Shown: positions 25,809 through 51,574 of the stretch, in pieces | How the letters are laid out: each line of letters begins with the position of its first letter | How positions within the stretch are numbered: position 1 is the stretch's first letter | From: an uncultured Chloroflexia bacterium | GTDB taxonomy: Bacteria > Chloroflexota > Limnocylindria > Limnocylindrales > CSP1-4 | Length of the DNA: 64,000 nucleotides | NCBI GenBank assembly: GCA_963831745.1 | Contig: CAWHRD010000004.1 | Span: forward strand, 46,005 to 110,004 | Direction: 5' to 3' | The notes under the pieces: model-generated | What the model saw: only the letters and a program-made list of their open reading frames with translations | What the model was told of the DNA's origin: nothing | Database searches by the model: none | Made by a program: the position numbers and the translations under genes

Positions 25809-26654
25809 ATGAGCGCCGGCGTCCTCCTGTCGTCCCGCGCCGCCGCGAGCGACGCATCGTCCGCCGCGCCCCTCGTCGTCGCCGACCTCGAGGGGACGTG
25901 CACGGCCGGCGAGACCTGGCGAGGCGTCGGCGCGTGGCTCTCCGCGAACGGCCGCGGCGGCCGGTATAGGCGCTTCCTGGCGCCCCGCATGGCGGCCCTT
26001 CCCCTGGTGCGGCTCGGGCTCATCTCGCGCCAGGCATTCCGCGACCGCTGGATCGCCGATCTCGCACGGCTCCTCGACGACCTCGATCGCGACGAGCTGG
26101 CGCTGGTCGCCGAGGAGGTCGTCGAGCGGCACCTGTGGCCCCCCAGGCGCGACTCGGTCATCGCCGAGCTCGAGGCCGCTGCCGCGTCGGGTGCGCGTGT
26201 CGCGATCGCAACCGGCACCTACCAGCCCGTGCTCGACGCGTTCATCGCCCGCCTCGCGACGGGGCCCGCGGGACCCGTCGCGGGCCTCGGCACGGCGCTC
26301 GAGATCGTCGACGGCGTCACGACGGGCCGGCTCGTCGGACGGATCGGCACCGGGAGCCGGAAGGCACGCCGCGTCCGTGCATGGGCGGGCGAGGCGGCCC
26401 CCGTAGCGGGCGAGGCGGCCGCCGGCACGGGCGACGCGGCCCCCGCAACGGGCGACGCGGCCCCCGCAACGTGCAAGGCGGTCCTCGGAGGTGGCGGCGC
26501 GGCCCTTGCGGCAGCCTATGGCGACTCATTGGCGGACGTCCCGCTCCTCGAGATGGCCGCCGAGCCGGTCGCCGTCGCGCCCGACCCCGAGCTCCGGGCG
26601 CTCGCCGTCGCGCGCGGGTGGCGCATCCTCGACGACGTGGCCGCGGGGACATAG
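25809..26654 (+). CDS. HAD-superfamily subfamily IB hydrolase (phosphoserine-phosphatase-like)
   Basis: DLEGT motif I, a capping domain, and GDSLADVPLL motif IV. It contains an in-frame 21-nt tandem duplication (GDAAPAT x2). Confidence 0.7.
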   Translation: MSAGVLLSSRAAASDASSAAPLVVADLEGTCTAGETWRGVGAWLSANGRGGRYRRFLAPRMAALPLVRLGLISRQAFRDRWIADLARLLDDLDRDELALVAEEVVERHLWPPRRDSVIAELEAAAASGARVAIATGTYQPVLDAFIARLATGPAGPVAGLGTALEIVDGVTTGRLVGRIGTGSRKARRVRAWAGEAAPVAGEAAAGTGDAAPATGDAAPATCKAVLGGGGAALAAAYGDSLADVPLLEMAAEPVAVAPDPELRALAVARGWRILDDVAAGT

Positions 26655-26656
26655 GC

Positions 26657-27925
26657 GTGGCACGGAGGGGGTGGTTCCGACACGGGCGCGGCGCGGCGCG
26701 CCTGCTGGGTGCGGCCCTCGTGGCCGGCCTGGCCGCGGGGGCCCTGCCGGGGGCGCCGGTGGCGCGCGCGGGTGAGCCCATCGACGGCCGGTCGGTCGAC
26801 CGGCGCCCGGCACAGGTGTCGACAACCCCGGTCGCGACCTCGCGCACGGTGTGGCACGGTCCTCGCACGGAGCGCGTGGTGGCGCTCACCTTCGACGACG
26901 GCTGGAATCCCCGGACGGTCCGCCGGGTCTACCAGGTCCTGCTCCGCGAGCAGGTCCCGGCCACCTTCTTCGTGACCGGCATCTACGTCCAGCGGGCGCC
27001 CGACCTCTGGCGCCGCATCGCGGCCTCGGGCTTCGGGCTGGCCAACCACTCCTACCTGCACCGCGATGCGCGCAGCCTGACCCCCCGCCAGCTTGCCGCC
27101 GACACGGCCCGCAGCCGGGCGGCCGTGGAGGCCGCCACCGGCCGGCCCATGCTGCCGGCGTACCGGCCGCCGGCGGGCAACCACACGGCGGCCACCGACG
27201 CCGTCGTCGCCGGAGCCGGCTTCCCGATGATCGTCCTGTGGGACGTGAGCGGCGGCGACGCCGTGCGCGGAGCGACCACCGCGCGGGTGGTCCGCGACGC
27301 GTCGGCAGGCCGTCCCGGGTCGATCGTCCTGCTCCACGCCGGGCCGAGCGTGACGCCGCGCGCCCTGCCGGCGATCATCGCCCGCTATCGCGCCCGCGGC
27401 TACCGGTTCGTCACGCTCGAGGAGCTCCTCGGCAGCCGCGCGGGCTGGGCGACCGGCCCGGGGACGGTCGCCGCCGGGTCGCGGCTCCTCGACCGAGCCG
27501 AGCCCGGACGTCGGCCCGGGATCGGCGGCACGACGGGCGCGGCGGGCGAAGAGGGAGCCGGTCCCGTCGTGGTCGCGTCGGCGGCCGCTCCGTCGCCCCC
27601 CGCCACCGCGGCGCCGGCGGCTGCCGCCCCGGCGACCACCGATCCTCCGGCCGCCGCCCGCGACGCGGCATGGGCGCGTCGTGATGCGACCCCGACGACC
27701 GTCGCGCTCTTCACGGCGGCGCTCCTGGGGCTGCTCGTGCTGCTCGGCGCCGCGGTGGGTCGCTCCGCCCGGGTGCCCCAGGGCGGGGCGACGGGCGACC
27801 AGGCCCCGGACGGCGTCGCGCCGGGCGACCAGGCCCCGGGCGGCCTCGCAGCGGGCGGCGACGCGCCCGGCCACGACGCGCCCGGCGGCAACGCGCCGAC
27901 GGCAGGGGACGACGCCCGCGCCTGA
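26657..27925 (+). CDS. Polysaccharide deacetylase (NodB homology domain) with signal peptide and C-terminal TM anchor / low-complexity tail
   Basis: TFDDGW motif, HSYLH, LLHAG. GTG start 2 nt after the HAD stop; N-terminal signal LLGAALVAGLAAGALPGAPVARA. Confidence 0.75.
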   Translation: MARRGWFRHGRGAARLLGAALVAGLAAGALPGAPVARAGEPIDGRSVDRRPAQVSTTPVATSRTVWHGPRTERVVALTFDDGWNPRTVRRVYQVLLREQVPATFFVTGIYVQRAPDLWRRIAASGFGLANHSYLHRDARSLTPRQLAADTARSRAAVEAATGRPMLPAYRPPAGNHTAATDAVVAGAGFPMIVLWDVSGGDAVRGATTARVVRDASAGRPGSIVLLHAGPSVTPRALPAIIARYRARGYRFVTLEELLGSRAGWATGPGTVAAGSRLLDRAEPGRRPGIGGTTGAAGEEGAGPVVVASAAAPSPPATAAPAAAAPATTDPPAAARDAAWARRDATPTTVALFTAALLGLLVLLGAAVGRSARVPQGGATGDQAPDGVAPGDQAPGGLAAGGDAPGHDAPGGNAPTAGDDARA

Positions 27926-33816: not shown

Positions 33817-35112
33817 ATGACGCAGGGCCTCTCGGTCGCACTGCTCCACTACACCGCGCCGCCCGTCGTCGGCGGCGTCGAGCAGGTGCTCGGCCAGCAC
33901 GCCCGGCTCCTTGCCGACGCCGGGCACGCGGTCAGGATCGTCGCCGGCCGCGGGGCGTCCCCGGATCCCCGGATCGCGTTCGTCCACGTCCCTCGGGCGG
34001 ACACCCGTGATCCCGACATCGTGCGCCTGCAGGCCGGCCTCGACGCGGGACACGTGCCCGCGGCGTTCGCGGGCGTCGTGGCCGGCCTCGTCGACGAGCT
34101 GGCGCGCGCGGCCGGGGATGTCGACGTCGTCATCGCCCACAACGTCGGCTCGCTGAACCGGAACCTGGCCCTCACGACCGCACTCCACCAGCTGCTCGAA
34201 CGCCCGTCCGCGCCGCGGGTGATCCTCTGGCAGCACGACCTGGCCTGGACCCTGCCGGCCTACCGACGCCGCCTCCATCCGGGTCGCCCCTGGGACCTGC
34301 TGCGCATGCCCTGGCCCGGGGCGACCCAGGTGACCATCTCCGAGGCTCGTCGCGCCGATCTCGCCAAGCTGATGGGGCTCGACCCCGCCGCGATCCACGT
34401 CGTGCCCAACGGCGTCGACTTGGCCGGGCTGCTCGGGCTCGCGCCCGCCACCATGGAGCTGGCGCGGCGGGTCGGGTTGCTGGCGTTCGATCCGCTCGTC
34501 GTCCTGCCGGTCCGGATCACCCCCCGAAAGAACGTGGAGCTTGCCCTCCGCGTGGTTGCCGCGATGCGCGCGGACGGGCGCCCCGCGGCGGGACTTGTGG
34601 TCACCGGTCCGATCGATCCGCACGAGCTTGGGGCATCGCGCTACTTCGACGGGCTCGTCGCCCTGCGGCGCGACCTGGGCCTCGCCGACGCCGCCCTCTT
34701 CCTGACCGAGGCGCTGGATGATCCCGCGGCCGAGGCGCTCGTCCGCGACCTGTACCGGCTCGCCGACCTGCTCCTCCTGCCGAGCCGGGACGAGGGCTTC
34801 GGGATCCCGATCCTCGAGGCGGCAGCGCATCGGCTGCCGATCATCTGCTCGGACCTGCGGGTCCTGCGCGACCTCGCCGGTGACGCGGCGCTCTACATCG
34901 CGCCGGACGCCGACCCGGCCCAGGTCGCCGCGCTGGCCCTCGCGCGTCTCGACGACGACCCCCTGGTCACCCTCGCGCGCCGCGTGCGAACCGAGTTCGC
35001 CTGGGAAGCCGTCTACCGCAGGGAGATCGCCCCGCTGCTCGCCGGCGACCGGACGCCCGTCAGGAGCGCTCGCCGCCGCCCTGGTCGCGGAGGAACTGCT
35101 CGATCTCGGTGA
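33817..35112 (+). CDS. Glycosyltransferase family 4 (GT-B, group 1)
   Basis: SRDEGFGIPILEAAAHRLPIICSD (EX7E-like). It starts 11 nt after the preceding GT4 gene, so probably forms an operon with it. Confidence 0.7.
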   Translation: MTQGLSVALLHYTAPPVVGGVEQVLGQHARLLADAGHAVRIVAGRGASPDPRIAFVHVPRADTRDPDIVRLQAGLDAGHVPAAFAGVVAGLVDELARAAGDVDVVIAHNVGSLNRNLALTTALHQLLERPSAPRVILWQHDLAWTLPAYRRRLHPGRPWDLLRMPWPGATQVTISEARRADLAKLMGLDPAAIHVVPNGVDLAGLLGLAPATMELARRVGLLAFDPLVVLPVRITPRKNVELALRVVAAMRADGRPAAGLVVTGPIDPHELGASRYFDGLVALRRDLGLADAALFLTEALDDPAAEALVRDLYRLADLLLLPSRDEGFGIPILEAAAHRLPIICSDLRVLRDLAGDAALYIAPDADPAQVAALALARLDDDPLVTLARRVRTEFAWEAVYRREIAPLLAGDRTPVRSARRRPGRGGTARSR

Positions 35113-35905
35113 TCAGGTCGTCGCCGGCCGGGCGCCGGGCCTCGTCGACCATCGCCTCCAGCCGCTCGACGTAGGTCCGCGTGTTGGCGTCGCCGGCGGT
35201 CGCGGCATCCAGGCGCGCCAGCATGCGGCGCGCCTCGTCCCGCAGCTCGCCCATGGCGATCTCGACGTCGAGGTGGCGGCCCACGAGGCCCAGCAGCTCG
35301 ACCGAGGCGGGCGGGTAGGCCCCGGTCACGTAGTGCGGGACCTGGGCGTAGTAGCCGACCGCCGGGACGCCGGCGCGGCTGACGGCAATGTCGAGCACGG
35401 AGATCGCCGCCGCCGGCACCCGGAGCACTCCCTCGGGGCCCGGGGCGACGTCGCCGCGCAGCAGCCCGGCCTGCGACTCGGTGCCCAGGACGGTCACCGG
35501 GCGCGTGTGGGGCACCGCGGCCGGGATGGCCCCCAGGCTGATCCACGTCGCCACGTCGAGGCCGCGGGCGAGGTCGATCACCGCCGATTCCAGCTCCCTC
35601 CAGCGGTAGTCCGGCTCGGGACCCGCGAGCACGAGCAGGTCGCGCTCGCCGAAGCGGGCGCGGCGCAACGTCAGCTCGGGCCACGTCAGGCGGTCCGGGC
35701 GGCCGTCGGCGATCTCGAGTGTGGGCCGGCGCGAGCGGTAGTCGTAGAGACGGTCCGTGTCGAAGGTCGCGATGGTCTCCGCGTCCTCCGCCAGGCGCGC
35801 GGCTGCGGCCGTCGCGGCGGAGCCGGCGTCGACCCAGCCGTCGAACGACGCGACCAGGAGGGGCGCGACGAGGTCGCCGGGATCGCGGAGGTCGACGAGG
35901 CTCAC
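35060..35905 (-). CDS. PAC2 (proteasome-assembly-chaperone-like) family protein
   Basis: 281 aa of typical actinobacterial PAC2 length and composition (LVASFDGWVDAGSAA...). It converges on the GT4 gene with a 53-nt 3' overlap. Confidence 0.7.
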   Translation of the reverse strand: MSLVDLRDPGDLVAPLLVASFDGWVDAGSAATAAAARLAEDAETIATFDTDRLYDYRSRRPTLEIADGRPDRLTWPELTLRRARFGERDLLVLAGPEPDYRWRELESAVIDLARGLDVATWISLGAIPAAVPHTRPVTVLGTESQAGLLRGDVAPGPEGVLRVPAAAISVLDIAVSRAGVPAVGYYAQVPHYVTGAYPPASVELLGLVGRHLDVEIAMGELRDEARRMLARLDAATAGDANTRTYVERLEAMVDEARRPAGDDLITEIEQFLRDQGGGERS

Positions 35906-35957: not shown

Positions 35958-36824
35958 TCAGGGGGCGACGACCGCGAACACTTGGCGAGGGCCGTCGAGT
36001 CCCTTCAGGTGACGCTCGCCCCGGTCCTCGAAGGACAGGCCCGAGCCCGTCGCCAGCTGGCGCGTGACGCCCGACGCGAGGATCTCGCCGGCGGCCGCGG
36101 CCGCGACGAGCCGGGCGGCCTCGTGGACGGCGATGCCCCGCACCTTCGACCCGACGACGTCGACCTCGCCCGTGTGGATGCCGGCCCGCACCTCGAGCCC
36201 GAGCGAGCGAGCCGCGTCCAGGACGTCGATTGCAGCCCGGCAGGCGCGAGCGGCGCCGTCGAACGTGGCGAGAAACCCGTCGCCGGTCGTCTCCACCTCG
36301 CGACCCCGCTGGTTCGCGATGGCCCGGCGGACCGACTCGTTGTGGCGCGCCAGGAGGTCGCTCCAGGCATGCTCGCCGAGGCGCCGCGCGGTCGGCGTGG
36401 AGTCCGCGATGTCGGTGAACAGGATGGTCAGGAGGACCCGCTCGCCGACGCCGATCGGTGTCGCCCAGGTCCGGAGGCCCTCCCAGTCGAGGGCGATCGA
36501 CGGCTCGTTGCCGATCGTCCAGGCATCGTGGCCCGGCGGGATGTCGAAGACGTCGTTCGGCTGGAACTCCATCGTCGTGCCGTCATCGAGGAGGAGTCCC
36601 CAGCGGCCGGAGAGCTGGAACCCGACGTGGCGGGACATGCACCAGTCCGTGCCGACGAGTGGCTTCACGTGCGTCGACCAGCGCCAGCCCGGCTCGCACA
36701 CCTCGTACCCCACCGTCAGGTCGCCGACCCGTACGGACGTCATGTGCCCGTGGTCGAACTCGACGGTCTCGTCGGGTTGGAGCAGAATTCTTGCGGCGGA
36801 CCCCCGGCATCCCACCCCCCTCAT
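35958..36824 (-). CDS. Adenylate/guanylate cyclase (class III CHD) with an N-terminal accessory domain
   Basis: LTILFTDIADSTPTARRLGE...TGDGFLATF...GIHTGEV cyclase motifs. The start at ATG 36824 is uncertain. Confidence 0.65.
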   Translation of the reverse strand: MRGVGCRGSAARILLQPDETVEFDHGHMTSVRVGDLTVGYEVCEPGWRWSTHVKPLVGTDWCMSRHVGFQLSGRWGLLLDDGTTMEFQPNDVFDIPPGHDAWTIGNEPSIALDWEGLRTWATPIGVGERVLLTILFTDIADSTPTARRLGEHAWSDLLARHNESVRRAIANQRGREVETTGDGFLATFDGAARACRAAIDVLDAARSLGLEVRAGIHTGEVDVVGSKVRGIAVHEAARLVAAAAAGEILASGVTRQLATGSGLSFEDRGERHLKGLDGPRQVFAVVAP

Positions 36825-36988
36825 CGCCAGAAACGCACTCCGGCGGATCAGCCGCTGGTGCCGAGCACGCTGCCGCTCGACTCCAGCTGCCGCCGTTTCC
36901 GAACTATAGAGATCGCGGAGGGGCAGCGTCCTCGACGATGCGCGCTCGCGGCGTCGCCGGTGCCGGCCACCGCCAGCGACTCCCGGGC

Positions 36989-37723
36989 TCACCCGGATCG
37001 GCCGCCCAGCCCCCGTGCCGCGGGCTCGTCGGCGATGACCCGCAGCGCCGGGTGGCGGCGCAGGAACGAGGCCGGGCAGTCGGGCCCCTCGGGCGCCTCG
37101 AGGGCGCGGGCGAGGATCGCGGCCTTGCCCTCGCCGGTCACCAGCAGCCAGATCTCGCCGGCGGTGAGCAGGCGGGCGATGCCGAGCGTGATGCCGGCGG
37201 TCGGCGGCGGGTCGGCGTCGTAGCGCTCGACGGCTGCCCGGCGGGTCGCGGCGGCCGTCCGGACCACCCGCGTCGCGGCGTCGGCGAAGGAGCCGGGCTC
37301 GTTGAGGCCGACATGGCCGTTCGTCCCCAGGCCCAGGAGCGCGAGATCGATCCCGCCAGCCGCGACGGCCTCGTGGCGGGCCGCCGCGGTGTCGGGGTCC
37401 GGGTCGTCGGCGTCGATCCGGTGGAGTGCCGCCGGCGGCTCCGGCAGGCGGTCGAGGAGCTCGCGGCGGAGGCGCACGTCGCAGCGCGCCGGGTGCCCGG
37501 GGGGGAGGCCGAGGAACTCATCGAGGGCGATCACCTCGACCGTCGCGAACGAGACCGCGCCCACCGTGGCCAGCGCTGCAAGGCGCGCGTAGACGGGCGT
37601 CGGCGTGTCGCCCGTCGGCAGGCAGACGCGGAGCCCGGGCGCGGCGCGGATCCGCGCGGCGAGGTCGCCGGCGACCCGGTCGGCCCAGGCCGTCGGCGGC
37701 AGGACGTCGAGGCGCAGGCTCAT
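36989..37723 (-). CDS. Glucosamine-6-phosphate deaminase / 6-phosphogluconolactonase (NagB/Pgl) family protein
   Basis: [16 protein letters not shown] signature. The 4-nt overlap with the upstream oxidoreductase suggests an operon. Confidence 0.65.
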
Positions 37724-38922
37724 CCCCCCGTGACGACTCGATCGGTGAAGTCACCCGTGGCGGGATCCTTGAGGATGAGCTTGTGGCGGCCGTCGGGCAG
37801 GATCTCGCGCTTGATGACGACCTGCCCCTCGTACTCCTCGGGCGTGGAGGTGATCCGCGGCGTGGTCCCTCCGCGCCATTCGAAGAGCTCGACCGGCTCC
37901 CAGCGGCCGCTCGTCGCCGAGCGATAGGCGGCGTCCATGATGGCGTTGACGACGTACCCGTCGTAGAACGTCTCCCGGGGCGCCCGGTCCTCCTCGAGCG
38001 CGTCGAACATGTCGGAGAACATGTCGACGTAGCCCAGCTCCGAGACCTCGTCCCCGACGGGGAAGAGCCAGCCGGCGCTCGTCTCGGCCTTCTCGGCCAC
38101 GTACCCGCCGCCGCCGCCCGCGGTGAACATCTCGAAGCCCGTGCGGAGGAAGTGGTTCATCCAGATGGTCCCGTGCGTGCCCGCCACCTCGTCGCGCAGG
38201 TCCATCCCGCCGCGGAACGTCCAGCTGACCTCGAACTGGCCGATGGCTCCCGACTCGAAGCGGATCAGGGCGATGGCGTTGTCCTCGTCGGCGATCGGGT
38301 GGACCAGGGTGTCGGTGTGGCACATCACCTCGACCGGCCGGTTGCCCTTCCCGACGAGGCTGCGGGCGATCTCGATGCAGTGGCAGCCGAGGTCGATGAT
38401 CGCGCCGCCGCCGGTGAGGCGCCCGTCCCAGAACCAGGCGGAGTGGGGGCCCGGGTGGGTCTCGCGCGAGCGCACCCAGGTGACGTCGCCGATCGCCCCG
38501 GACTGCACCGCCCTGACGGCCTTGAGCGTCTTGGGCGTGTAGCACAGGTCCTCGAGGTAGCCGGCGAAGACGCCGGCCTTCTCGACCGCCTCGAGCATCC
38601 GCCGCGCCTCGGCGGCGGTTCGCCCCAGGGGCTTCGTGCACAGGACCGCCTTGCCCGCCCGCGCGACGGCGCTCACCACCTCCTCGTGGAGGTGATTCGG
38701 GAGGGCCACCACGACGACGTCCGTGTCCGGATGAGCGATCGCGGCGGCGAGGTCGGAGGTTGACTCGGGGATGGACCAGCGCTCGCGGAACGCCGCGCCG
38801 CGCTCGGCGGAGCGGGAGTAGGCGACGCGAACCCGGTCGCGGCCGCGCTGGCCGTGGAGGGTCATCGTGTAGAAGTCGCCGATGAGCCCGGTGCCCAGCA
38901 TCGTGATCGAGTGCGCCTTCAT
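37720..38922 (-). CDS. Gfo/Idh/MocA family NAD(P)-dependent oxidoreductase
   Basis: N-terminal Rossmann fold ([11 protein letters not shown]) and an EDLCYTPK-type C-terminal alpha/beta domain. Confidence 0.8.
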
Positions 38923-39015
38923 CGTCGTCCGGCTCCTGTGCAGGCGGGGCAGCGCCGGGGGGTGCGTGGCGGGACCCGCGCGGTCGCGTCGTCACGGCGA
39001 TTGTATGGACCGCGA

Positions 39016-39144
39016 CCCGGCGCCGGACGGACGCGCGACCCGGCGCCGGACGGACGCGCGGCGCGGCGCTGGACGGACGCGCGCCCCGGCGCTGGACGGA
39101 CGCGCGCCCCGGCGCTGGACGGACGCGCGGCGCGGCGGGCGCGG
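39016..39144. repeat. Tandem array of five 23-bp repeats plus a partial sixth (consensus CCCGGCGCYGGACGGACGCGCGM) in a divergent promoter region
   Basis: Units at 39016, 39039, 39062, 39085 and 39108. There are no spacers, so this is not a CRISPR array. Confidence 0.7.
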
Positions 39145-39217
39145 AAACCGGTGATCGGCCGCGGGACGGTACACTCCACGCATTCCGCGCCGCCCGGCGC
39201 GCCAGCGAGAGGGACGG

Positions 39218-39475
39218 ATGACCAAGCGATCCAAGCACGAGCGCGCCCAGCGCGCCATCGAGACCGACCGGGTGCGCCAGATCGAGGCGTCCTGGGCGGC
39301 CAGCACACCCTCTTCGGTGGCCCGCGAGTTCGAGACGGCCGTCCGGGCCGCCCGCGAGCGGGGCCCGCTCCCGCCCCCGCCCGACATGGCCCCGGGCACC
39401 GCCCCGAACCCGCCCCGCCCCGGCCACGAGCCGAAGCCGCCCAAGGGCGCGGAGCGCCCGCGGAGGGGCCGCTAG
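39218..39475 (+). CDS. Hypothetical small basic protein (85 aa) with a Pro-rich C-terminus
   Basis: RBS-like GAGAGGGACGG before the ATG. The N-terminal half is charged and helical (MTKRSKHERAQRAIETDRVRQIEASWAA). Confidence 0.35.
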   Translation: MTKRSKHERAQRAIETDRVRQIEASWAASTPSSVAREFETAVRAARERGPLPPPPDMAPGTAPNPPRPGHEPKPPKGAERPRRGR

Positions 39476-39786
39476 TGGCCCGCAAGCGAAAGGTCGTCTA
39501 CCCGCAGAAGCGGACCCCTCCCAAGGCGCCGGTCTTCGCCCCGGGCGAGGCCCCGGTCGTCCGCACGAGCGTGGTCGCGATCGACCTGACGGCCCGGCAG
39601 GGCCGCGACGGCCTGGCCGTGGGACAGCGGGTGCGGATCCTGGGCACCGGGCTGTATGCCGGCGAGATCGCCGTCATCGAGAAGCTCGGTGGATCGGTGG
39701 TCCCGGCGGCGACGGTGCGAACCGAGGCCGGCCGGAGCCGCCAGGTCCGCACGATCGACCTCGAGCCGGTCACCGGCGAAGCCTGA
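39476..39786 (+). CDS. Hypothetical small protein (103 aa)
   Basis: The GTG start abuts the previous stop. The C-terminus is KOW-like (GQRVRILGTGLYAGEIAVIEKLGG). Confidence 0.35.
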
Positions 39787-40028
39787 CCCGGCGACTCCTC
39801 CGCGAGCTCACCGGTCGCCGGTGAGGGTCACGTCCGTCGGTCGCGGTCGCGATCGCGGATGCCGTGGCGGGTCGTCGGCGCCATCCTCGCGTCTCGGGTA
39901 GACTCCGCCTCTCGTGTTCGACGGGCGCGCCGGTCAGCGCCCCGGTCTCCCACGCCGCCGATCCCGAACCACCTCTGCGCCCTGACCGGGCCCCGCCTCG
40001 AGCGGGAGGGCCCCGCCAGGAGCACCCC

Positions 40029-41585
40029 GTGTCCTTCGCTCACCTCGGGCTGACGCCCGAGCTCGTCCGCGCCGTCGCGGACCAGGGCTACATTGAGCCC
40101 ACCCCCGTCCAGGCTGCCGCCATCCCGCTCGTCCTCGCCGGCCGCGACCTGCTGGCGGGCGCCCAGACCGGCACCGGGAAGACCGCCGCCTTCGTCCTCC
40201 CCATGCTCCAGCTGCTCAACGCGACCGCCGCGCGCCCCGACGACCGCCGCGCGGCGCCCCGGCGCCAGGTCCGCGCCCTCGTCATCGTCCCGACGCGCGA
40301 GCTCGCCCTCCAGGTGGAGGAGAGCGTCCGGACCTACGGGGCCCGGCGGCCCATCCGCTCCGTCGCGATCTACGGCGGCGTCGGGTTCGGTCCCCAGGCG
40401 AGCGCATTGCGCGCCGGCGCCCAGGTCGTCGTGGCCACCCCCGGGCGGCTCCTCGACCACGTCGGCCAGCACACGATCGACCTCTCGGCGGTCGAGATCC
40501 TCGTCCTCGACGAGGCCGACCGGATGCTGGACATGGGGTTCATCCGCGACATTCGCCGCGTGCTCGAGCTCCTGCCGCGTCGCCGCCAGAGCCTGCTCTT
40601 CTCAGCGACGTTCTCGGACGAGATCCGCGAGCTCGCCAACGGGTTCCTCGACCGTCCGGCCGAGGTCGACGTCGCCCCCCGGAACACGGCTGCGGCGCTC
40701 GTGCGGCAGCTCGTCCATCCGGTCGACCGGGAGCGCAAGCGCGAGCTCCTGAGCACGCTCGTGCGCACCGGGCGCCTCGAGCAGGCCCTGGTCTTCACCC
40801 GGACCAAGCACGGAGCCAACCGACTGGCCGAGCAGCTCTCGCGCGACGGCATCGCGACGGCGGCCATCCACGGCAACAAGGGCCAGGCCCAGCGGGTTAG
40901 GGCCCTCGCCGACTTCAAGGCCGGACGGGTGGCGGTCCTCGTCGCGACGGACATCGCGGCCCGGGGCCTCGACATCGACGCCCTGCCGCACGTGGTCAAC
41001 TACGAGCTCCCGATGGTGCCGGAGGACTACGTCCACCGGATCGGGCGCACCGGCCGGGCCGGCGTGGAGGGGATCGCGATCTCGCTCGTCTGCGTCGACG
41101 AGACGCCGCTCCTGCGGGCGATCGAGCGGCTCCTGCATCGGACGATCCCGATCGAGGCCGTCGCCGGCTTCGAGCCCGACCGGACGATCCCTGCCGAGCC
41201 GATCCACCTCCGCTCCGCCGAGCACCGGGGCCTGCCGACGCGAACGCGGGCGGCCGGCCACGGCGCGTCGATCGGTCGGCCGTCGCACGGTGTCGGCATC
41301 GGCCGGTCGGTGAGCCCGCGGCATGCTGCCGGTCCCGGCTGGGCTGCCGGAGCCGGGCGCCCTGCCGCCGCCCGCGCGGACCACGCCGGGCGGCCGGGTC
41401 CCGGCCGGGCGCACCCCGGCGGGCGCGGCGTCGAGCGGCACCCCGGGGCCGGCGGGCACCACGAGGCCGGCGCAGGTCGCGAGCCCGGCGCGCGCCACGA
41501 GCCGCGCGGCCCCTTCAACGCGATGCCCGGCGAGCGGTTCGCCCGGCGTGCCGATGGCACCTCCGAGGCGCGGTCGCGCCGCTGA
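40029..41585 (+). CDS. rhlE: DEAD-box ATP-dependent RNA helicase (RhlE-like) with an Arg/Gly-rich C-terminal tail
   Basis: Q-motif (F..LGL...AV...GY..PTPVQ), motif [22 protein letters not shown] and [13 protein letters not shown] start. Confidence 0.85.
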
Positions 41586-41892: not shown

Positions 41893-41992
41893 CCCATCAC
41901 CTCCATGGCGGCCGAGCTGCTGCGTCCATGATCTCCCTCACGAGCCGTGGGCGGTAGTACCCGAGGTCATGAATCGCGGGCGACCCGCGGAC

Positions 41993-42290
41993 CCGCCCGG
42001 TCCGGTTCGAGCGTGGTGCCCCGCCCGGTCCGGTTCGAGCGTGGTGCCCCGCGTGGCGTGGCGCGCCGCCCGCTGCGCGGGCCCGGGAGGGCGACTCTCT
42101 GGGGCAGCGGGTGGCGGGCGAGCCGCCACGTGCAGGGCCCGGCCAGCGTACCGGCCAACGCGGCCGGGGTTTCGGGCGAGCCATCCACGTGCACGTCCCG
42201 GGACGGCGTACCGGGTAGCGCGGCCGGGGTGGCGGGCGAGCCATCCACGTGCACGTCCCGGGCCGGCGTACCGGCCAGCGCGGTGCGACG
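41993..42290. repeat. Repeat-rich intergenic region: 28-nt x2 tandem (41993-42048) and about 60-nt x3 tandem (42111-42290; core GGCGGGCGAGCCRYCCACGTGCASGKCCCGG)
   Basis: Direct reading of the sequence. The units share the CACGTGCACG palindromic core. Confidence 0.6.
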
Positions 42291-42597
42291 AACCTCCTCC
42301 GTGCTCCAAGCTGCAGCGAATGTGCGTGTTCGGCGCGATTGGGAGCGCGATGGACCACTGCGCTACCGCGCCACGCGGTACGTGTCGCACCACGGAGCCT
42401 CTCCGAAGGAGGAAGGGGACGTACACCAGGTGGCTGGACACGATCCACGCTCGGCATCGGCCACGCCCGTGCCGCGCGACGATCGGCGGGAGTTTCCGGG
42501 CGCTTCGGCCCTCCGTCCCACCCCGGCGCCGCCGCTACGGTCGCCTCGACAGGGGTCCGCCCGGTCCCCACGGATCCCGCTCCAGAGGACGCGCCCC

Positions 42598-43089
42598 ATG
42601 AAGGTCCTGATCAGCGTCGCCTCCCGCCACGGTGCCAGCTTCGAGATCGCGGAGGAGATCAGCGCGACCCTCGCCGCGTCCGGCTTCCAGACTGCGGTCC
42701 TGCCGCCGGACGCCGTTACGAGCCTCGAGGGCTACGGCGGCGTGATCCTGGGCAGCAGCGTCTACGTGGGCCACTGGATGGACGCCGCGGTCAACTTCGT
42801 CGAGCGCTTCTCCAAGGAGATCAGGACCGTTCCGGTCTGGCTCTTCTCCAGCGGGCCGATCGGGCACGAGCCCAAGCCCGAGGACGAGCCGGCGGACCTC
42901 GCGGACCTGGTCGCCGCGACGGGCGCCCGCGAGCACCGCGTCTTCGCCGGGCAGGTGGATCGCGCCAAGCTCGGCCTCGGCGAGAAGGTGATCCTCACCG
43001 CGGTCCGGGCCCCCGAGGGCGACTTCCGGCCGTGGGACGAGATCCGCGCCTGGGCCGCGGAGATCGCCGCCGCGCTCAAGCAGGGCTGA
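42598..43089 (+). CDS. Flavodoxin-like fold protein (flavodoxin/WrbA/HemG-like)
   Basis: MKVLISVASRHGASFEIAEEI...GGVILGSSVYVGHW: the flavodoxin-like FMN-binding N-terminus. Confidence 0.7.
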   Translation: MKVLISVASRHGASFEIAEEISATLAASGFQTAVLPPDAVTSLEGYGGVILGSSVYVGHWMDAAVNFVERFSKEIRTVPVWLFSSGPIGHEPKPEDEPADLADLVAATGAREHRVFAGQVDRAKLGLGEKVILTAVRAPEGDFRPWDEIRAWAAEIAAALKQG

Positions 43090-45891: not shown

Positions 45892-47268
45892 TCAGTGGCC
45901 GAGCGCCTCGTTGCGGATGGACGCCACGTCCTCGAGGCGGCGCCGGATCGCCCCCAGGAACCGTGCGCCCTGCTCGCCGTCGACCAGCCGGTGGTCGGCC
46001 GAGAGGGTCAGCTTCATGATGGACCGCACGGCAAGCCCGTCGCCGATGACGACCGGCGTCGGCAGGGCGCTGGCCACGGCGAGGATGGCCGCCTCGCCGG
46101 GGTTGATGATCGCGCTGAACTCCTCGACGCCGAGCATGCCGAGGTTGCTCACCGTGAAGGTGCCGCCGGTCATCTCGTCGACCGCGAGCGTTCCCTCGCG
46201 GGCCTTCGCGGCGAAGGCCGCGGCCCGGTCGTGGATCTCGGCCACCGGGAGCCGGTCCGCGTCGCGGATGACCGGCACGACCAGGCCACCCGGGACCGCA
46301 ACGGCGAGGCCGAGGTGCACGCGGCGTCGGGGCCAGACCACGACGCCGTCCGTCCGCGCGTTGACGTCCGGGAACTCGGCCAGGGTCTGAGCCGTGGCGG
46401 CCAGGACGAAGTCCGTGACGGTGAGGTTCGTGCCCGCCGCCTTCAGCTCGGCCCGGAGCGCGAGGAGCGCCGTCACGTCGACGGCGACGGTCACGGTGAA
46501 ATGCGGGATCGACGTCCAGCTGGACGTGAGGCGCTCGGCGATGACCCGCCGCATCCGGCTGAGCGGCCGCGGCTCCTCTTCGCCGTCGACCGGGGACCTG
46601 TCGCCCGAGGCGACGGGCCCGGCTGCTGCTCCGGCGCCGCCGCGCGCCGCCGCGGCCATGGGCTGCCCGGGCACGGGCGCGCCGCCGCGCGCCGCCGCGG
46701 CCATGGGCTGCCCGGGCACGGGCGCGCCGCCGCGCGCCGCCGCGGCCGCGGCACGGACGTCGCGCTCGATGATGCGCCCGTCGGGCCCAGTCCCGGCAAC
46801 CGTTCGCGGGTCGACGCCCTCCTCGGCCGCGAGGCGGCTCGCGCGTGGGCTGATCGCGAGACGCCGGTGCGCGCCGCCGGCGGACCGGACGGACGCGGGG
46901 GCGGCCCCGGCCGAACCGGGGGCGGGCGACGCTGCGGGAGGCCCGGCCGTCGGCGCTGGCGCCGACCCGGATTCCGGCCCGGCCATCGCGGGCGCAGCCG
47001 GAGCGGGCACGTCCGCGGGGACCTCATCGCCCTGGGCGCCCACGTAGCCGCAGATCGCGTTGACGGGCACCGTCTCGCCCTCCGCCACGACGCGGCGCAG
47101 GAGGACACCGTCGTCGAACGCCTCGACCTCCATGGCCGACTTGTCCGTCTCGATCTCGAATAGGACGTCCCCCCGGGCCACCGGGTCGCCCTCGCGCTTG
47201 AACCAGGTCGTGAGCGTGCACTCCTCGGTCATCTGGCCGGGCTTGGGCATGCGGATCGCGTGCAGCAT
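45892..47268 (-). CDS. Dihydrolipoamide acyltransferase (E2 component of a 2-oxoacid dehydrogenase complex)
   Basis: Lipoyl domain (IETDKSAMEVEAFDDG), an Ala/Pro-rich linker with an internal 14-aa duplication, the E3-binding domain and the catalytic domain (DHRLVDGEQGARFL). Confidence 0.85.
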   Translation of the reverse strand: MLHAIRMPKPGQMTEECTLTTWFKREGDPVARGDVLFEIETDKSAMEVEAFDDGVLLRRVVAEGETVPVNAICGYVGAQGDEVPADVPAPAAPAMAGPESGSAPAPTAGPPAASPAPGSAGAAPASVRSAGGAHRRLAISPRASRLAAEEGVDPRTVAGTGPDGRIIERDVRAAAAAARGGAPVPGQPMAAAARGGAPVPGQPMAAAARGGAGAAAGPVASGDRSPVDGEEEPRPLSRMRRVIAERLTSSWTSIPHFTVTVAVDVTALLALRAELKAAGTNLTVTDFVLAATAQTLAEFPDVNARTDGVVVWPRRRVHLGLAVAVPGGLVVPVIRDADRLPVAEIHDRAAAFAAKAREGTLAVDEMTGGTFTVSNLGMLGVEEFSAIINPGEAAILAVASALPTPVVIGDGLAVRSIMKLTLSADHRLVDGEQGARFLGAIRRRLEDVASIRNEALGH

Positions 47269-47296
47269 CGTCGTGCTCCTCGGTCGACTCGGCGGG

Positions 47297-49600
47297 TCAG
47301 ACGAGGGCCAGAACGGCGCGGACGACGTCCCCCGCATTCGGCAGGAAGGCCCGCTCCAGGCCCTCGGCCTGAGGGGAGATCCCGTTCGCGGCGCCGATCC
47401 GGCCCACCGGCCCGTCGAGGTCGTCGAAGGCCTCGAGCTGGACCCCGGCGACGATCTCGTTGACGTAGCTGCCGACGAGCACCGCCTGGCTGGCGACGAC
47501 GCAGCGCCCGGTCCTGCGGACCGACGCCAGGACCGTCTCCATGTCGAGCGGGACGAGGCTCCGGAGGTCGATCACCTCGGCCGAGAGCCCGTGGTCGGCG
47601 GCCAGGGTCTCGGCGGCCGCCAGGAGGTCGGGCACCGCGGGCCCCCAGCCGACGAGCGTCACGTCGGTGCCCTCGCGCGCGACGCGCGCCCGGCCGATCG
47701 GGACGAGGTACTCCTCCTCCGGCACGGGGCCCTTCACGGGGTAGAGGCCCTGGCTCTCCACGAACAGGACCGGGTTGTTGGAGCGGATGGCCGACTTCAG
47801 CAGCCCCTTGGCGTCGGCCGCGGTCGCCGGGTAGACCACCTGCAGGCCCGGGATGTGGGTGAAGACGCTCTCGAGGGACTGCGAGTGCTGCCCCCCGTAG
47901 CCCTTGCCGGCGCCGACCGAAGCCCGGATGACGAGCGGAACCTCCACCTGGGCGCCGCTCATGTAGTGCCACTTGGCGGCCTGGTTGGCGATCTGGTCGG
48001 AGGACATCAGGGCAAAGTCCATGTACATCAGCTCGACCACCGGCCGCAGCCCGACGATGGCCGCGCCCACCGCCGTCCCGCAGATCGCGGCCTCGCTGAT
48101 GGGCGTGTTGAAGACCCGCTCCCGCCCGAAGGCCTCGAGGAGCCCCTTCGTCAGCTTGAAGGCGCCGCCGTAGTCGGCGACGTCCTCGCCGTAGACGACG
48201 ACCCGGGCGTCGCGGCGCATCTCCTCGACGAGCGCCTCGCGGAGGGCGTCCTTGTAGCTGATCGCCCCCGCCGCGTCGCGTTTCGCCACCGGGGGCTCGG
48301 CGTACGTCACGACGCTGCGCGCCGCGTCGGGGACCACGTCGGCCGTGGTGTCCGTGTAGAGGTAGGACAGGACGTCCGCCGGATCGGGGTCGGTCGCCTG
48401 CGACGCGCGCACGGCGGCCCGGGCGTTGCGTTCCCGCGCGCCGGCCTCCACGGCGGCCACGGCGGTCGCGTCGGCGGCGCCGGCCTCGACGAGCTGCTGC
48501 TTGAGGCGCTCGATCGGGTCGACCGCGCGCCAGGCGGCCTCCTCCTCGCGGGTCCGGTATTCGTTGCGCGGGTCCGACAGCGAGTGCCCGTAGTAGCGGT
48601 AGGTCGACGCCTCGAGCAGGACCGGGCCGTCGCCGGCGCGGCAGAGGGCGGCCGCCCGCCGGACCGCATCGCGGACGGCGAGGACGTCCATGCCGTTGAC
48701 GACCTCGGCGTGCATGTTGTCGTCGGCGAACCCGGCCGCCCGGCGGGCCAGGTGGCGCACGCCCATGACCTCGTCGTCGGTCCGGTGAGTCATGCCGTAG
48801 TGGTTGTTCTGGATGAGGTAGATGATCGGCAGCCCGTGGGCCCGGGCGCCGGCGAGGTGGTTGGTCCACTGGTCCTGGGCCGCCCAGTTCAGCGACTCGA
48901 GGACGACGCCGTTGGCGTACGCCCCGTCGCCGGCGAAGCAGCAGACGACGCGGTCGCCCCGCTCGTAGCGGATTGCCATGGCCGCACCCGTCGCGATCGG
49001 CACGCTGCCGCCGACGATCGCGTTGGCCCCCAGGTTGCCCGTCGAGAAGTCGCCGATGTGCATCCCGCCGCCCCGCCCGCGGCTGTAGCCCTCGTCCTTG
49101 CCGAAGAGCTCGGCGATGACGCGGTAGAGGTGCTCCCCCAGGGCCGCGTCGCGGAGCTCCTCCCGGGTCTCTGCGCCGGAGCCCGGGACGCGGGTCCGGA
49201 GCTGCTCGGCGGTCATGTGCCGGATCGCCGCGAACCCCTTGGCGACCGCGTCGCCGTGGCCGCGGTGGGAGCTGGTGACGTTGTCGTCGGGCCGCAACGC
49301 CGACGAGGCCCCGACCGCCGTCCCCTCCTGGCCGATGGACACGTGCGTGGGGCCGCGGTAGTCGTAGCCCGGGAGCGGGTCGTAGCCACCCGAGCGGAGC
49401 CGGACGATCATCTCCTCGAGCTCGCGGATCGCGAGCATGTCGTCGAGGAGGTCCAGCGCCCCGGCGGCGTCGATCCCGCCCGCCGCGACCTCGGTCGCCA
49501 GGTCGCCCGCGTAGGCGAACCCGGTGATCGTCCCGCAGGACTCCTCGAAGGGGGAGAAGTCGGGCCGGGTGTCGCTGCGGTAGGTGGGCTCGGCGGCCAT
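47297..49600 (-). CDS. 2-oxoacid dehydrogenase E1 component with fused alpha and beta subunits (ThDP-dependent)
   Basis: 767 aa. The alpha part carries the ThDP motif (GDGAYANG...NN) and the beta part carries transketolase-like Pyr and C-terminal domains. It lies upstream of E2 on the same strand. Confidence 0.85.
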   Translation of the reverse strand: MAAEPTYRSDTRPDFSPFEESCGTITGFAYAGDLATEVAAGGIDAAGALDLLDDMLAIRELEEMIVRLRSGGYDPLPGYDYRGPTHVSIGQEGTAVGASSALRPDDNVTSSHRGHGDAVAKGFAAIRHMTAEQLRTRVPGSGAETREELRDAALGEHLYRVIAELFGKDEGYSRGRGGGMHIGDFSTGNLGANAIVGGSVPIATGAAMAIRYERGDRVVCCFAGDGAYANGVVLESLNWAAQDQWTNHLAGARAHGLPIIYLIQNNHYGMTHRTDDEVMGVRHLARRAAGFADDNMHAEVVNGMDVLAVRDAVRRAAALCRAGDGPVLLEASTYRYYGHSLSDPRNEYRTREEEAAWRAVDPIERLKQQLVEAGAADATAVAAVEAGARERNARAAVRASQATDPDPADVLSYLYTDTTADVVPDAARSVVTYAEPPVAKRDAAGAISYKDALREALVEEMRRDARVVVYGEDVADYGGAFKLTKGLLEAFGRERVFNTPISEAAICGTAVGAAIVGLRPVVELMYMDFALMSSDQIANQAAKWHYMSGAQVEVPLVIRASVGAGKGYGGQHSQSLESVFTHIPGLQVVYPATAADAKGLLKSAIRSNNPVLFVESQGLYPVKGPVPEEEYLVPIGRARVAREGTDVTLVGWGPAVPDLLAAAETLAADHGLSAEVIDLRSLVPLDMETVLASVRRTGRCVVASQAVLVGSYVNEIVAGVQLEAFDDLDGPVGRIGAANGISPQAEGLERAFLPNAGDVVRAVLALV

Positions 49601-50468: not shown

Positions 50469-50559
50469 ACTCTAGCAGGATTGTGCGGGACCATGCAAGA
50501 ATAGGTGGCGAGCGGAGCGTTGCGCTTCTGGACGGAACGCCCCGAAGCCGATGAAGGAC

Positions 50560-50616
50560 CCCCCGGGCGGACCTCGAACCCCCGGGCGGACCTCGAACCC
50601 CCGGGCGGAGGTCGAA
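50560..50616. repeat. Three tandem 19-nt repeats (CCCCCGGGCGGACCTCGAA) about 90 nt upstream of the deoR-family gene
   Basis: Units at 50560, 50579 and 50598; the third has 2 mismatches. Confidence 0.55.
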
Positions 50617-51376
50617 CTCGATCAAATGCTCGCCCTCCGAGCCGTATGTAGGATGGGTCGGCAGCGGGACGGGCCGGTGGCTGGTGTCGGAGCGTGGGCG
50701 CCGGCGACCGACTCGATCAGATCCTCCGTTGGCCGGACTTTTGATCGAATGGCGACCCGCGGACATCGCATACGGTTCGGCACGCGAACATCCGATCCAG
50801 TGACGCGCCGCCGTGGACCCAGCGCCAGCCGTGGATCCAGCGCCAGCCGTGGATCTGCCGCCGCGGCCGCCGTCGCGCTCGCCCCGGGAGAGCGCCGCCC
50901 GCGGTGGATCTGCCGCTGTGCTGGACGGACCAGGGCCTCGACGTCCAGGTCGCGGCGTTCCAGCGCCGCCCGATCGCGTTCCCGGTCCGCTACGTCGTCC
51001 TCAACGGCCCGTTCGTCGGCGTCCGGAGCGCGAAGCACCGAGACGACAGCGTCCCGGGCGGTCGCCGCCGGGCCGGCGCGTCGCCGTCGCCTCGTCAGAC
51101 GCCGTGGACGGCCGGCGCGAGCTCCTCGATGAGCGCCGCGCGATGGCCGCGTCGACGGCCCCCCGGGGCGGAGCCTCGCCTCGCTCTCGAGCGACGGCTC
51201 GACCCCGACACGGTCGTCGCTCGTCGTCGGCGACAGGGCCGACGGGATCGCCGCCGCCGTCGCCGTCGCCGGGCGAGGGCCCGGGGCGACCGTCGCCCGG
51301 CCATCGGCCATCGACGAGCGTTGCGAGCGGGTGGCGGCGGCGGGGCGGCAACGTGACGCAAGCGCAACCTCGCCTG

Positions 51377-51424
51377 TTGACAGGGCGATTCGCGACCCAT
51401 ACTCTTCGTTAATCGATTATCGAG
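51377..51424 (+). promoter_or_regulatory. Candidate sigma-70-type promoter (-35 TTGACA, 17-nt spacer, -10 TACTCT) followed by the palindromic operator TTAATCGATTATCGAG
   Basis: -35 at 51377-51382, -10 at 51400-51405 and the perfect palindrome TAATCGATTA at 51410-51419. The same module recurs at 62393-62442. Confidence 0.5.
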
Positions 51425-51574
51425 GACCAAGCCGTCGGCACGGCCCGACGACAGTGGAGGAGTGTCCGACTCGATGCCCGGCTGCATCACGATGATCGAC
51501 CCGGGGCGTGCACAGCGGTTCGGCGCCGTCGTCCATCGCGATCGCGTCCCGCCCCGACCCAGGGGCGCCGGCTG

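Follow-up and report, generated by a model that had tools for sequence, protein, structure and literature searches.

Five near-identical 23-bp units stand head to tail between two divergently transcribed gene sets of an uncultured Chloroflexota bacterium. Do they form a regulatory element that acts on one or both of these gene sets, or are they a piece of spacer DNA that happened to be duplicated in place? We address this question within the window, that is, the whole 64-kb stretch of DNA analysed here, and by comparison with the orthologous spacers of related Chloroflexota contigs.

The repeat and its genetic neighborhood

The window has a GC content of about 70-78%, with a value of 0.74 across positions 38001-40000. 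To the left of the repeat, a Gfo/Idh/MocA-family oxidoreductase (37720-38922, minus strand) is the first gene of a minus-strand operon. A glucosamine-6-phosphate isomerase/NagB-like gene (36989-37723, minus strand) overlaps its stop codon and is followed by an adenylate/guanylate-cyclase-domain gene (35958-36992, minus strand), beyond which lies a PAC2 gene (35060-35905). These assignments are based on Pfam and NCBIfam. The cyclase-domain gene sits between the NagB-like gene and PAC2. In the related contigs L121, L153 and L154 the NagB-like gene is directly followed by PAC2, and we therefore regard the cyclase-domain gene as lineage-specific operon content.

On the plus strand, to the right of the repeat, the window encodes two small proteins for which no Pfam or NCBIfam family was matched. 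The first is an 85-aa protein with a basic N-terminus and a proline-rich tail (39218-39475) that is kept beside the spacer in relatives; its only family signal is a sub-threshold RskA_N match (E = 0.019). The second has 103 aa (39475-39786), and its GTG start overlaps the TAG stop of the preceding gene (TAGTG). The two form a conserved pair that adjoins a DEAD-box helicase in close relatives. In the window, this helicase (40029-41585, plus strand) lies downstream of the two small genes, is syntenic with its counterparts in relatives, and is intact, aligning with them over 401 aa without a gap. DUF1918 is a further neighboring family (Pfam, NCBIfam). The Pfam and NCBIfam families of the flanking genes include no replication initiator (rep) or regulator gene, and there is no Rfam match within 38700-40100. 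A preliminary description, made from the letters alone, had placed the repeats in the divergent promoter region between the Gfo/Idh/MocA-NagB-like operon on the minus strand and two small genes on the plus strand. The annotation agrees with this location.

Tandem Repeats Finder (TRF) delimits the array at 39007-39137 (no strand assigned), with a period of 23 bp, 5.7 copies, 92% matches, no indels and a score of 192. The same tract also has a higher-order period of 69 bp (1.9 copies), whose score of 225 is above that of the 23-bp period. In the register CCCGGCGCYGGACGGACGCGCGN, five full units occupy 39016-39130, with starts at 39016, 39039, 39062, 39085 and 39108. They are followed by a partial sixth unit, CGCGGCGGGCGCGG (39131-39144), which is the native right flank and matches the start of a U3-type unit over its first 7 nt. 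The pattern CCCGGCGCYGGACGGACGCGCG, searched with up to 3 mismatches, has 5 sites in 64 kb, all of them in the array and each with 0-1 mismatch. In 100 dinucleotide-preserving shuffles, 0.22 sites are expected and the maximum is 2. The TRF score and the excess of matches bear out the five tandem repeats of the preliminary description, and the partial sixth copy that it listed is likewise present.

The units are very similar. U1 reads CCCGGCGCCGGACGGACGCGCGA, and U2 has the same sequence but for a final G; U3 reads CGCGGCGCTGGACGGACGCGCGC; U4 reads CCCGGCGCTGGACGGACGCGCGC, and U5 is identical to it but for a final G. Only 3 of the 23 positions vary, namely position 2 (C/G), position 9 (C/T) and position 23 (A/G/C). 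Copy 1 as defined by TRF (39007-39028, GGACCGCGACCCGGCGCCGGAC) has 22 nt and is one base under the consensus length. The junction GACGCGCGGCGCGGCG is present twice, at U2/U3 and between U5 and the right flank, in agreement with the 69-bp higher-order period.

The array has the form of a minisatellite, with head-to-tail units in the range of about 10-100 bp that exceed chance. The start-to-start spacing equals the 23-bp length of the unit, so the units are contiguous. There are no unique spacers between them, and the earlier statement that this is not a CRISPR array holds. The phasing had also been described as roughly two helical turns, and here the description needs correction: at 10.5 bp per turn, 23 bp corresponds to 2.19 turns, so that each unit is turned by about 70 degrees relative to the one before it and the units do not share one face of the helix.

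Special structures and promoter-bearing units were also considered. A slipped-strand, cruciform or other special structure was rejected on the strength of the single-stranded DNA fold, which is no better than that of shuffled sequences (z = -0.34). The alternating purine-pyrimidine run, ACGCGCG(C), extends over just 7-8 bp per unit, which is short for Z-DNA. Inspection of the units for an ECF-sigma-type promoter revealed no GGAAC-like -35 element with a correctly spaced CGTC, and this option was likewise rejected.

Predicted promoters and orthologous spacers

The comparison drew on eight further distinct orthologous spacers, all of them on related Chloroflexota (Limnocylindria-like) contigs. 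They were reached through contigs that encode close Gfo homologs (L120-L125 and L151-L154) and through a search of metagenome contigs with the 85-aa protein (L126-L150). The closest Gfo homologs are 85-94% identical, which places the relatives at a divergence of at least 6% from the window in this protein, and the named ones come from Chloroflexota/Candidatus Limnocylindrales metagenome-assembled genomes. By these homologs, the window probably belongs to a Chloroflexota lineage of soil with high GC. Exact-protein look-ups for the Gfo, 85-aa and 103-aa proteins matched no record. The divergent arrangement of the Gfo and 85-aa genes also occurs in L121-123, L126, L128, L130, L133, L152 and L153.

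Phylogenetic footprinting across these spacers identifies a putative -10 box on either side of the array. The candidate for the Gfo/Idh/MocA operon is the hexamer TACAAT (39000-39005, minus strand; ATTGTA on the plus strand). It belongs to a left conserved island, (G/A)ATTGTA(T)GGACCG, which the Gfo strand reads as TACAAT. ATTGTA is kept in L120, L121, L126, L130/L152, L133 and L153 despite a GC content of about 74%, and variants of it occur in L128 (ATTGTG) and L124/L125 (ATTCTA). The candidate for the 85-aa and 103-aa genes is the hexamer TACACT (39170-39175, plus strand), located 42 nt upstream of the ATG and invariant across all close relatives. Here the right conserved island GGTACACT precedes a near-invariant leader with a GC hairpin, a GAGG ribosome-binding site and ATGACCAAGCGA. 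Allowing for the left-box variants, both -10 boxes and the 5' leader are kept in 8 of 8 other spacers. On inspection, distant homologs of the 85-aa gene in other contexts have a TANNNT some 35-50 nt ahead of their start codon. Scanning 38700-39500 for a sigma-70 consensus gave no match, and neither promoter shows a convincing -35 hexamer.

The predicted 5' leader of the 85-aa gene contains a GC-rich hairpin, CGCGCC-GCCC-GGCGCG (39186-39201, plus strand), between TACACT and the ribosome-binding site GAGAGGG (39207-39213, plus strand), which is followed by the ATG at 39218. The hairpin is near-invariant (CCGCGCC-loop-GGCGCGG) in L120, L121, L124, L126, L128, L130, L133 and L153. It shows just one compensatory pair and has no Rfam match.

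If the hexamers are placed at -12 to -7, transcription is predicted to start near 38993 (minus strand) and near 39182 (plus strand). The array would then span about -14 to -144 of the Gfo promoter, overlapping its predicted -35 region, and its other end would fall at about -45 to -38 relative to the small-gene promoter.

The distance between the two -10 hexamers is highly variable. It is 164 bp in the window, 124 bp in L121, 113 bp in L133, 106 bp in L153, 74 bp in L126 and 29 bp in L130/L152, and it reaches 1177 bp in L120, where a trypsin-like gene is inserted, and 2036 bp in L124/L125, where a cadherin-like gene is inserted. With values from 29 bp to more than 2 kb, the inter-box distance does not look constrained. 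A MAFFT alignment of the window with the orthologous spacers contains no conserved block between the hexamers. None of the eight other spacers has a substantial array, and TRF reports only short hits with low scores (30-51) in them. The repeat is therefore absent at the orthologous site of related species, as expected of a minisatellite of recent local origin.

Genes have also entered this spacer. The extra gene between Gfo and the 85-aa gene is trypsin-like in L120 (1431-2276) and encodes a cadherin-domain protein in L124/L125 (956-2605) and L154 (12-1556). To judge from these contigs, the Gfo/small-gene spacer is a hot spot both of insertion and of changes in length.

Origin of the array and competing explanations

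Copy 1 opens with GGACCGCG at 39007, a single base past ATTGTAT, and its first 8-9 nt are shared with relatives: the same place reads GGACCGCG in L126 and L153 and GGACCGTG in L120 and L121. Removal of four units from the window spacer leaves 164 - 4 x 23 = 72 bp, nearly the length found in L126 (74 bp), the nearest alignable relative. The window collapsed to one unit indeed aligns with L126 over ~30 nt past the -10 box. As far as sequence comparison can tell, copy 1 is the ancestral promoter-adjacent sequence and the array is a young duplication, found only in this genome among those compared. We suggest that a native 23-bp piece just upstream of the Gfo-operon -10 box was amplified in place, most likely by replication slippage/slipped-strand mispairing or by unequal recombination between short direct repeats. 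Copy 1 is bounded by the direct repeat GGAC...GGAC, from which the first duplication could plausibly have started. At least two rounds or kinds of duplication would have been involved, one that copied single 23-bp units and another that copied a 69-bp block of three.

We conclude, with a probability of about 0.65, that the array is a lineage-specific minisatellite made by slippage, near-neutral within an unconstrained spacer and serving at most as passive spacer DNA. Bacterial minisatellites are known as VNTR loci, for example the MIRU-VNTR and ETR loci of Mycobacterium tuberculosis. Like these, the array consists of head-to-tail units of 10-100 bp in an intergenic region of a high-GC genome, is missing at the orthologous loci of relatives, and has unit variants and a higher-order periodicity that show repeated duplication. 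The defining property of a VNTR is copy-number polymorphism, and the array is known from one genome sequence. Unlike MIRU, its unit has no dispersed family, with no other copies in the window or, among the matches listed, in the public collections scanned. When genome contigs were searched for the single unit CGGCGCYGGACGGACGCGCG with up to 2 mismatches, at least 119 loci in many phyla were found, the pattern being too short for GC-rich genomes. Among the matches listed, 118 loci have one copy and one (L004) has two copies that are 86 bp apart and not in tandem; no listed locus has a tandem array or is an ortholog of the window locus. A two-unit pattern had 0 matches in 241 million metagenome records.

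Some observations weigh against neutrality. It is deduced from a lack of conservation, and a function that arose very recently would escape a comparison with relatives that are at least 6% diverged in the Gfo protein. The array lies exactly between two predicted promoters and covers -14 to about -144 of one of them, so an effect on expression is possible. Its units are well preserved, which could mean recent origin, homogenisation or constraint. On the minisatellite reading a sequence-specific function is improbable, and the only likely effect is a passive one, as each further copy would lengthen the distance between the two predicted start sites. This distance is about 190 bp now (189 bp from the predicted sites) and would be about 95-100 bp with one copy (97 bp). 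At about 190 bp, two RNA polymerases would no longer compete for overlapping upstream DNA. Given that copy 1 is probably ancestral and that the added copies lie distal to it, the region from about -60 to +1 of both promoters would be the same at two or more copies.

An active role through copy number is a different proposal. The array could be a contingency-type VNTR that expands and contracts at high frequency and retunes one or both promoters, perhaps through promoter spacing, supercoiling coupling or upstream-element effects. Its place between two predicted promoters fits such an element, as does the 69-bp higher-order structure, which implies repeated duplication events, and there is a precedent in a high-GC genome. 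Promoter tandem repeats of M. tuberculosis (dop, lpdA-glpD2, cysG-efpA) have units of 54-58 bp that carry the promoter, so that copy number changes promoter dosage; this number differs among strains and within cultures, and the repeats have been linked with expression phenotypes (PMC12817950). The array resembles them in its position immediately upstream of a gene in high-GC DNA and in the native promoter-proximal sequence of its first copy. The 23-bp unit, in contrast to theirs, contains no promoter elements: it lacks a -10-like hexamer, has no TANNNT on either strand and not a single TA dinucleotide, and cannot add promoters. The -10 box is located just outside the array, which thus contributes spacer DNA only. 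From two copies upward, only the inter-promoter distance would change, and relatives tolerate 29 to more than 2000 bp. Another type of variable repeat is found at the overlapping hifA/hifB promoters of Haemophilus influenzae, where a phase-variable dinucleotide repeat separates the -10 from the -35 element and so determines promoter spacing by its length. Both repeat tracts are common to two divergent promoters. In contrast to the 1-7 bp units of phase-variable repeats between -35 and -10, the unit here has 23 bp, and the added copies lie upstream of copy 1, so that expansion is distal and core spacing is unchanged. Taken together, we consider an expression-tuning VNTR unlikely. The preliminary description had spoken of an iteron-like or VNTR element, and the VNTR-like part of this stands, given the absence of the array in relatives and its 69-bp higher-order structure. 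We give a smaller chance to the idea that the array, as the product of unusually active tandem duplication, is a length-tunable insulator whose copy number varies within the population and sets the distance, and with it the steric/supercoiling coupling, between the two promoters. This too would be something other than a binding-site array.

A binding-site array, iteron-like or a cooperative operator, could control either the Gfo/NagB-like operon or the small-gene operon, or the two together. Five direct repeats that are nearly identical and whose period is near that of 22-bp plasmid iterons would suit this role, and so would the position of the array, which reaches into the -35 region of one promoter and stops about 38-45 bp before the other predicted start. 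Plasmid iterons include the seven 22-bp repeats of the R6K gamma origin and the 22-bp iterons of pPS10, and they share with the array several direct repeats, a period of about 22-23 bp and the lack of spacers. Unlike them, the array has no adjacent rep gene and, at about 74% GC, no AT-rich stretch in the spacer that could serve as an unwinding element, and it occupies a chromosomal locus that is syntenic in relatives without the repeats. The neighbors encode an oxidoreductase, an isomerase, a cyclase-domain protein, two small proteins and a DEAD-box helicase, with neither a regulator nor a rep gene. An operator motif should recur at the orthologous promoter or at other promoters, but the eight other spacers, one of which measures 29 bp, have no conserved motif between the -10 boxes, and the 13-nt core GGACGGACGCGCG occurs, with up to 1 mismatch, 2 times elsewhere in the 64-kb window versus 3.45 expected. 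Furthermore, dyad symmetry in the unit does not go beyond GC arms of 5 bp, and the 23-bp period sets neighboring units out of phase. The Gfo -10 box lies between the arms of an inverted repeat (CGCGGTC, 38979-38985; GACCGCG, 39008-39014), which was considered as a source of operator half-sites and rejected, since neither its position nor its sequence is conserved in six relatives; we take it to be a chance occurrence in GC-rich DNA. The iteron or cooperative-regulator part of the preliminary description is therefore not upheld, and a binding-site array seems quite improbable. A mis-joined or wrongly expanded short repeat would be an assembly artefact. Tandem repeats are a classic source of assembly error, and the organism is uncultured, with metagenome contigs as its closest relatives. 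Against this, the units are non-identical, with three variable positions in an ordered pattern, the whole array of 131 bp is below typical read length, the flanking genes are intact and collinear with those of relatives, and the other arrays of the window include imperfect ones. An artefact is thus very improbable. Least credible of all is a coding sequence or structured RNA. Mechanical open reading frames do cross the array on both strands, and three units amount to 69 bp or 23 codons. The 23-bp period, however, shifts the frame at every unit, the array is upstream of both predicted start sites, and relatives, with spacers down to 29 bp, have no homologous open reading frame there. Neither Rfam nor the fold z-score of -0.34 indicates an RNA.

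Other minisatellites in the window and implications

The window carries several other arrays. The next divergent spacer (41893-42598), between a DUF1918 gene on the minus strand and a flavodoxin-like gene on the plus strand, has 706 bp as opposed to 255 bp in L153. It holds a perfect 28-bp array of 2.2 copies (41992-42052) and a 60-bp array of 3.0 copies (42109-42283). By its length and repeats, it is apparently a second promoter region expanded by tandem duplication. A region of ~1.1 kb (50469-51574) that has locally AT-richer patches and no gene on a crude GC3 map contains a 19-bp array of 3.1 copies (50560-50617) and an 18-bp array of 2.9 copies (50805-50855). A 21-bp array of 4.6 copies, or 1.9 copies of 63 bp, is located at 26386-26505, within 26133-27680, where the crude gene map calls no gene; stretches without a called gene on this map may hold uncalled genes. 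Finally, a perfect (100%) 45-bp repeat of 2.5 copies (46634-46747) lies in frame, at 15 codons per unit, in a probable gene (45892-47337, minus strand), which points to a very recent duplication within a protein.

Counting arrays with a TRF score of at least 80 and a period of at least 10, the 64-kb window has 9 arrays and 111 kb of related contigs (L120-L153) have 3. This corresponds to about 1 minisatellite per 7 kb versus 1 per 37 kb (p about 0.008, conditional binomial), a difference to be read with the caveat that short-read metagenome contigs may under-represent repeats. The several arrays of the window fit a genome-wide mutational tendency better than a locus-specific device.

If the minisatellite reading is true, the locus is a warning: five orderly copies between divergent promoters look regulatory, yet comparison with orthologous loci places them in the one freely evolving part of the region. 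The conserved signals are the two -10 boxes and the leader that flank the array. The array could be of use for typing strains of this uncultured, probably soil-dwelling lineage, and it would add a Chloroflexota example to the promoter-proximal minisatellites known from mycobacteria.
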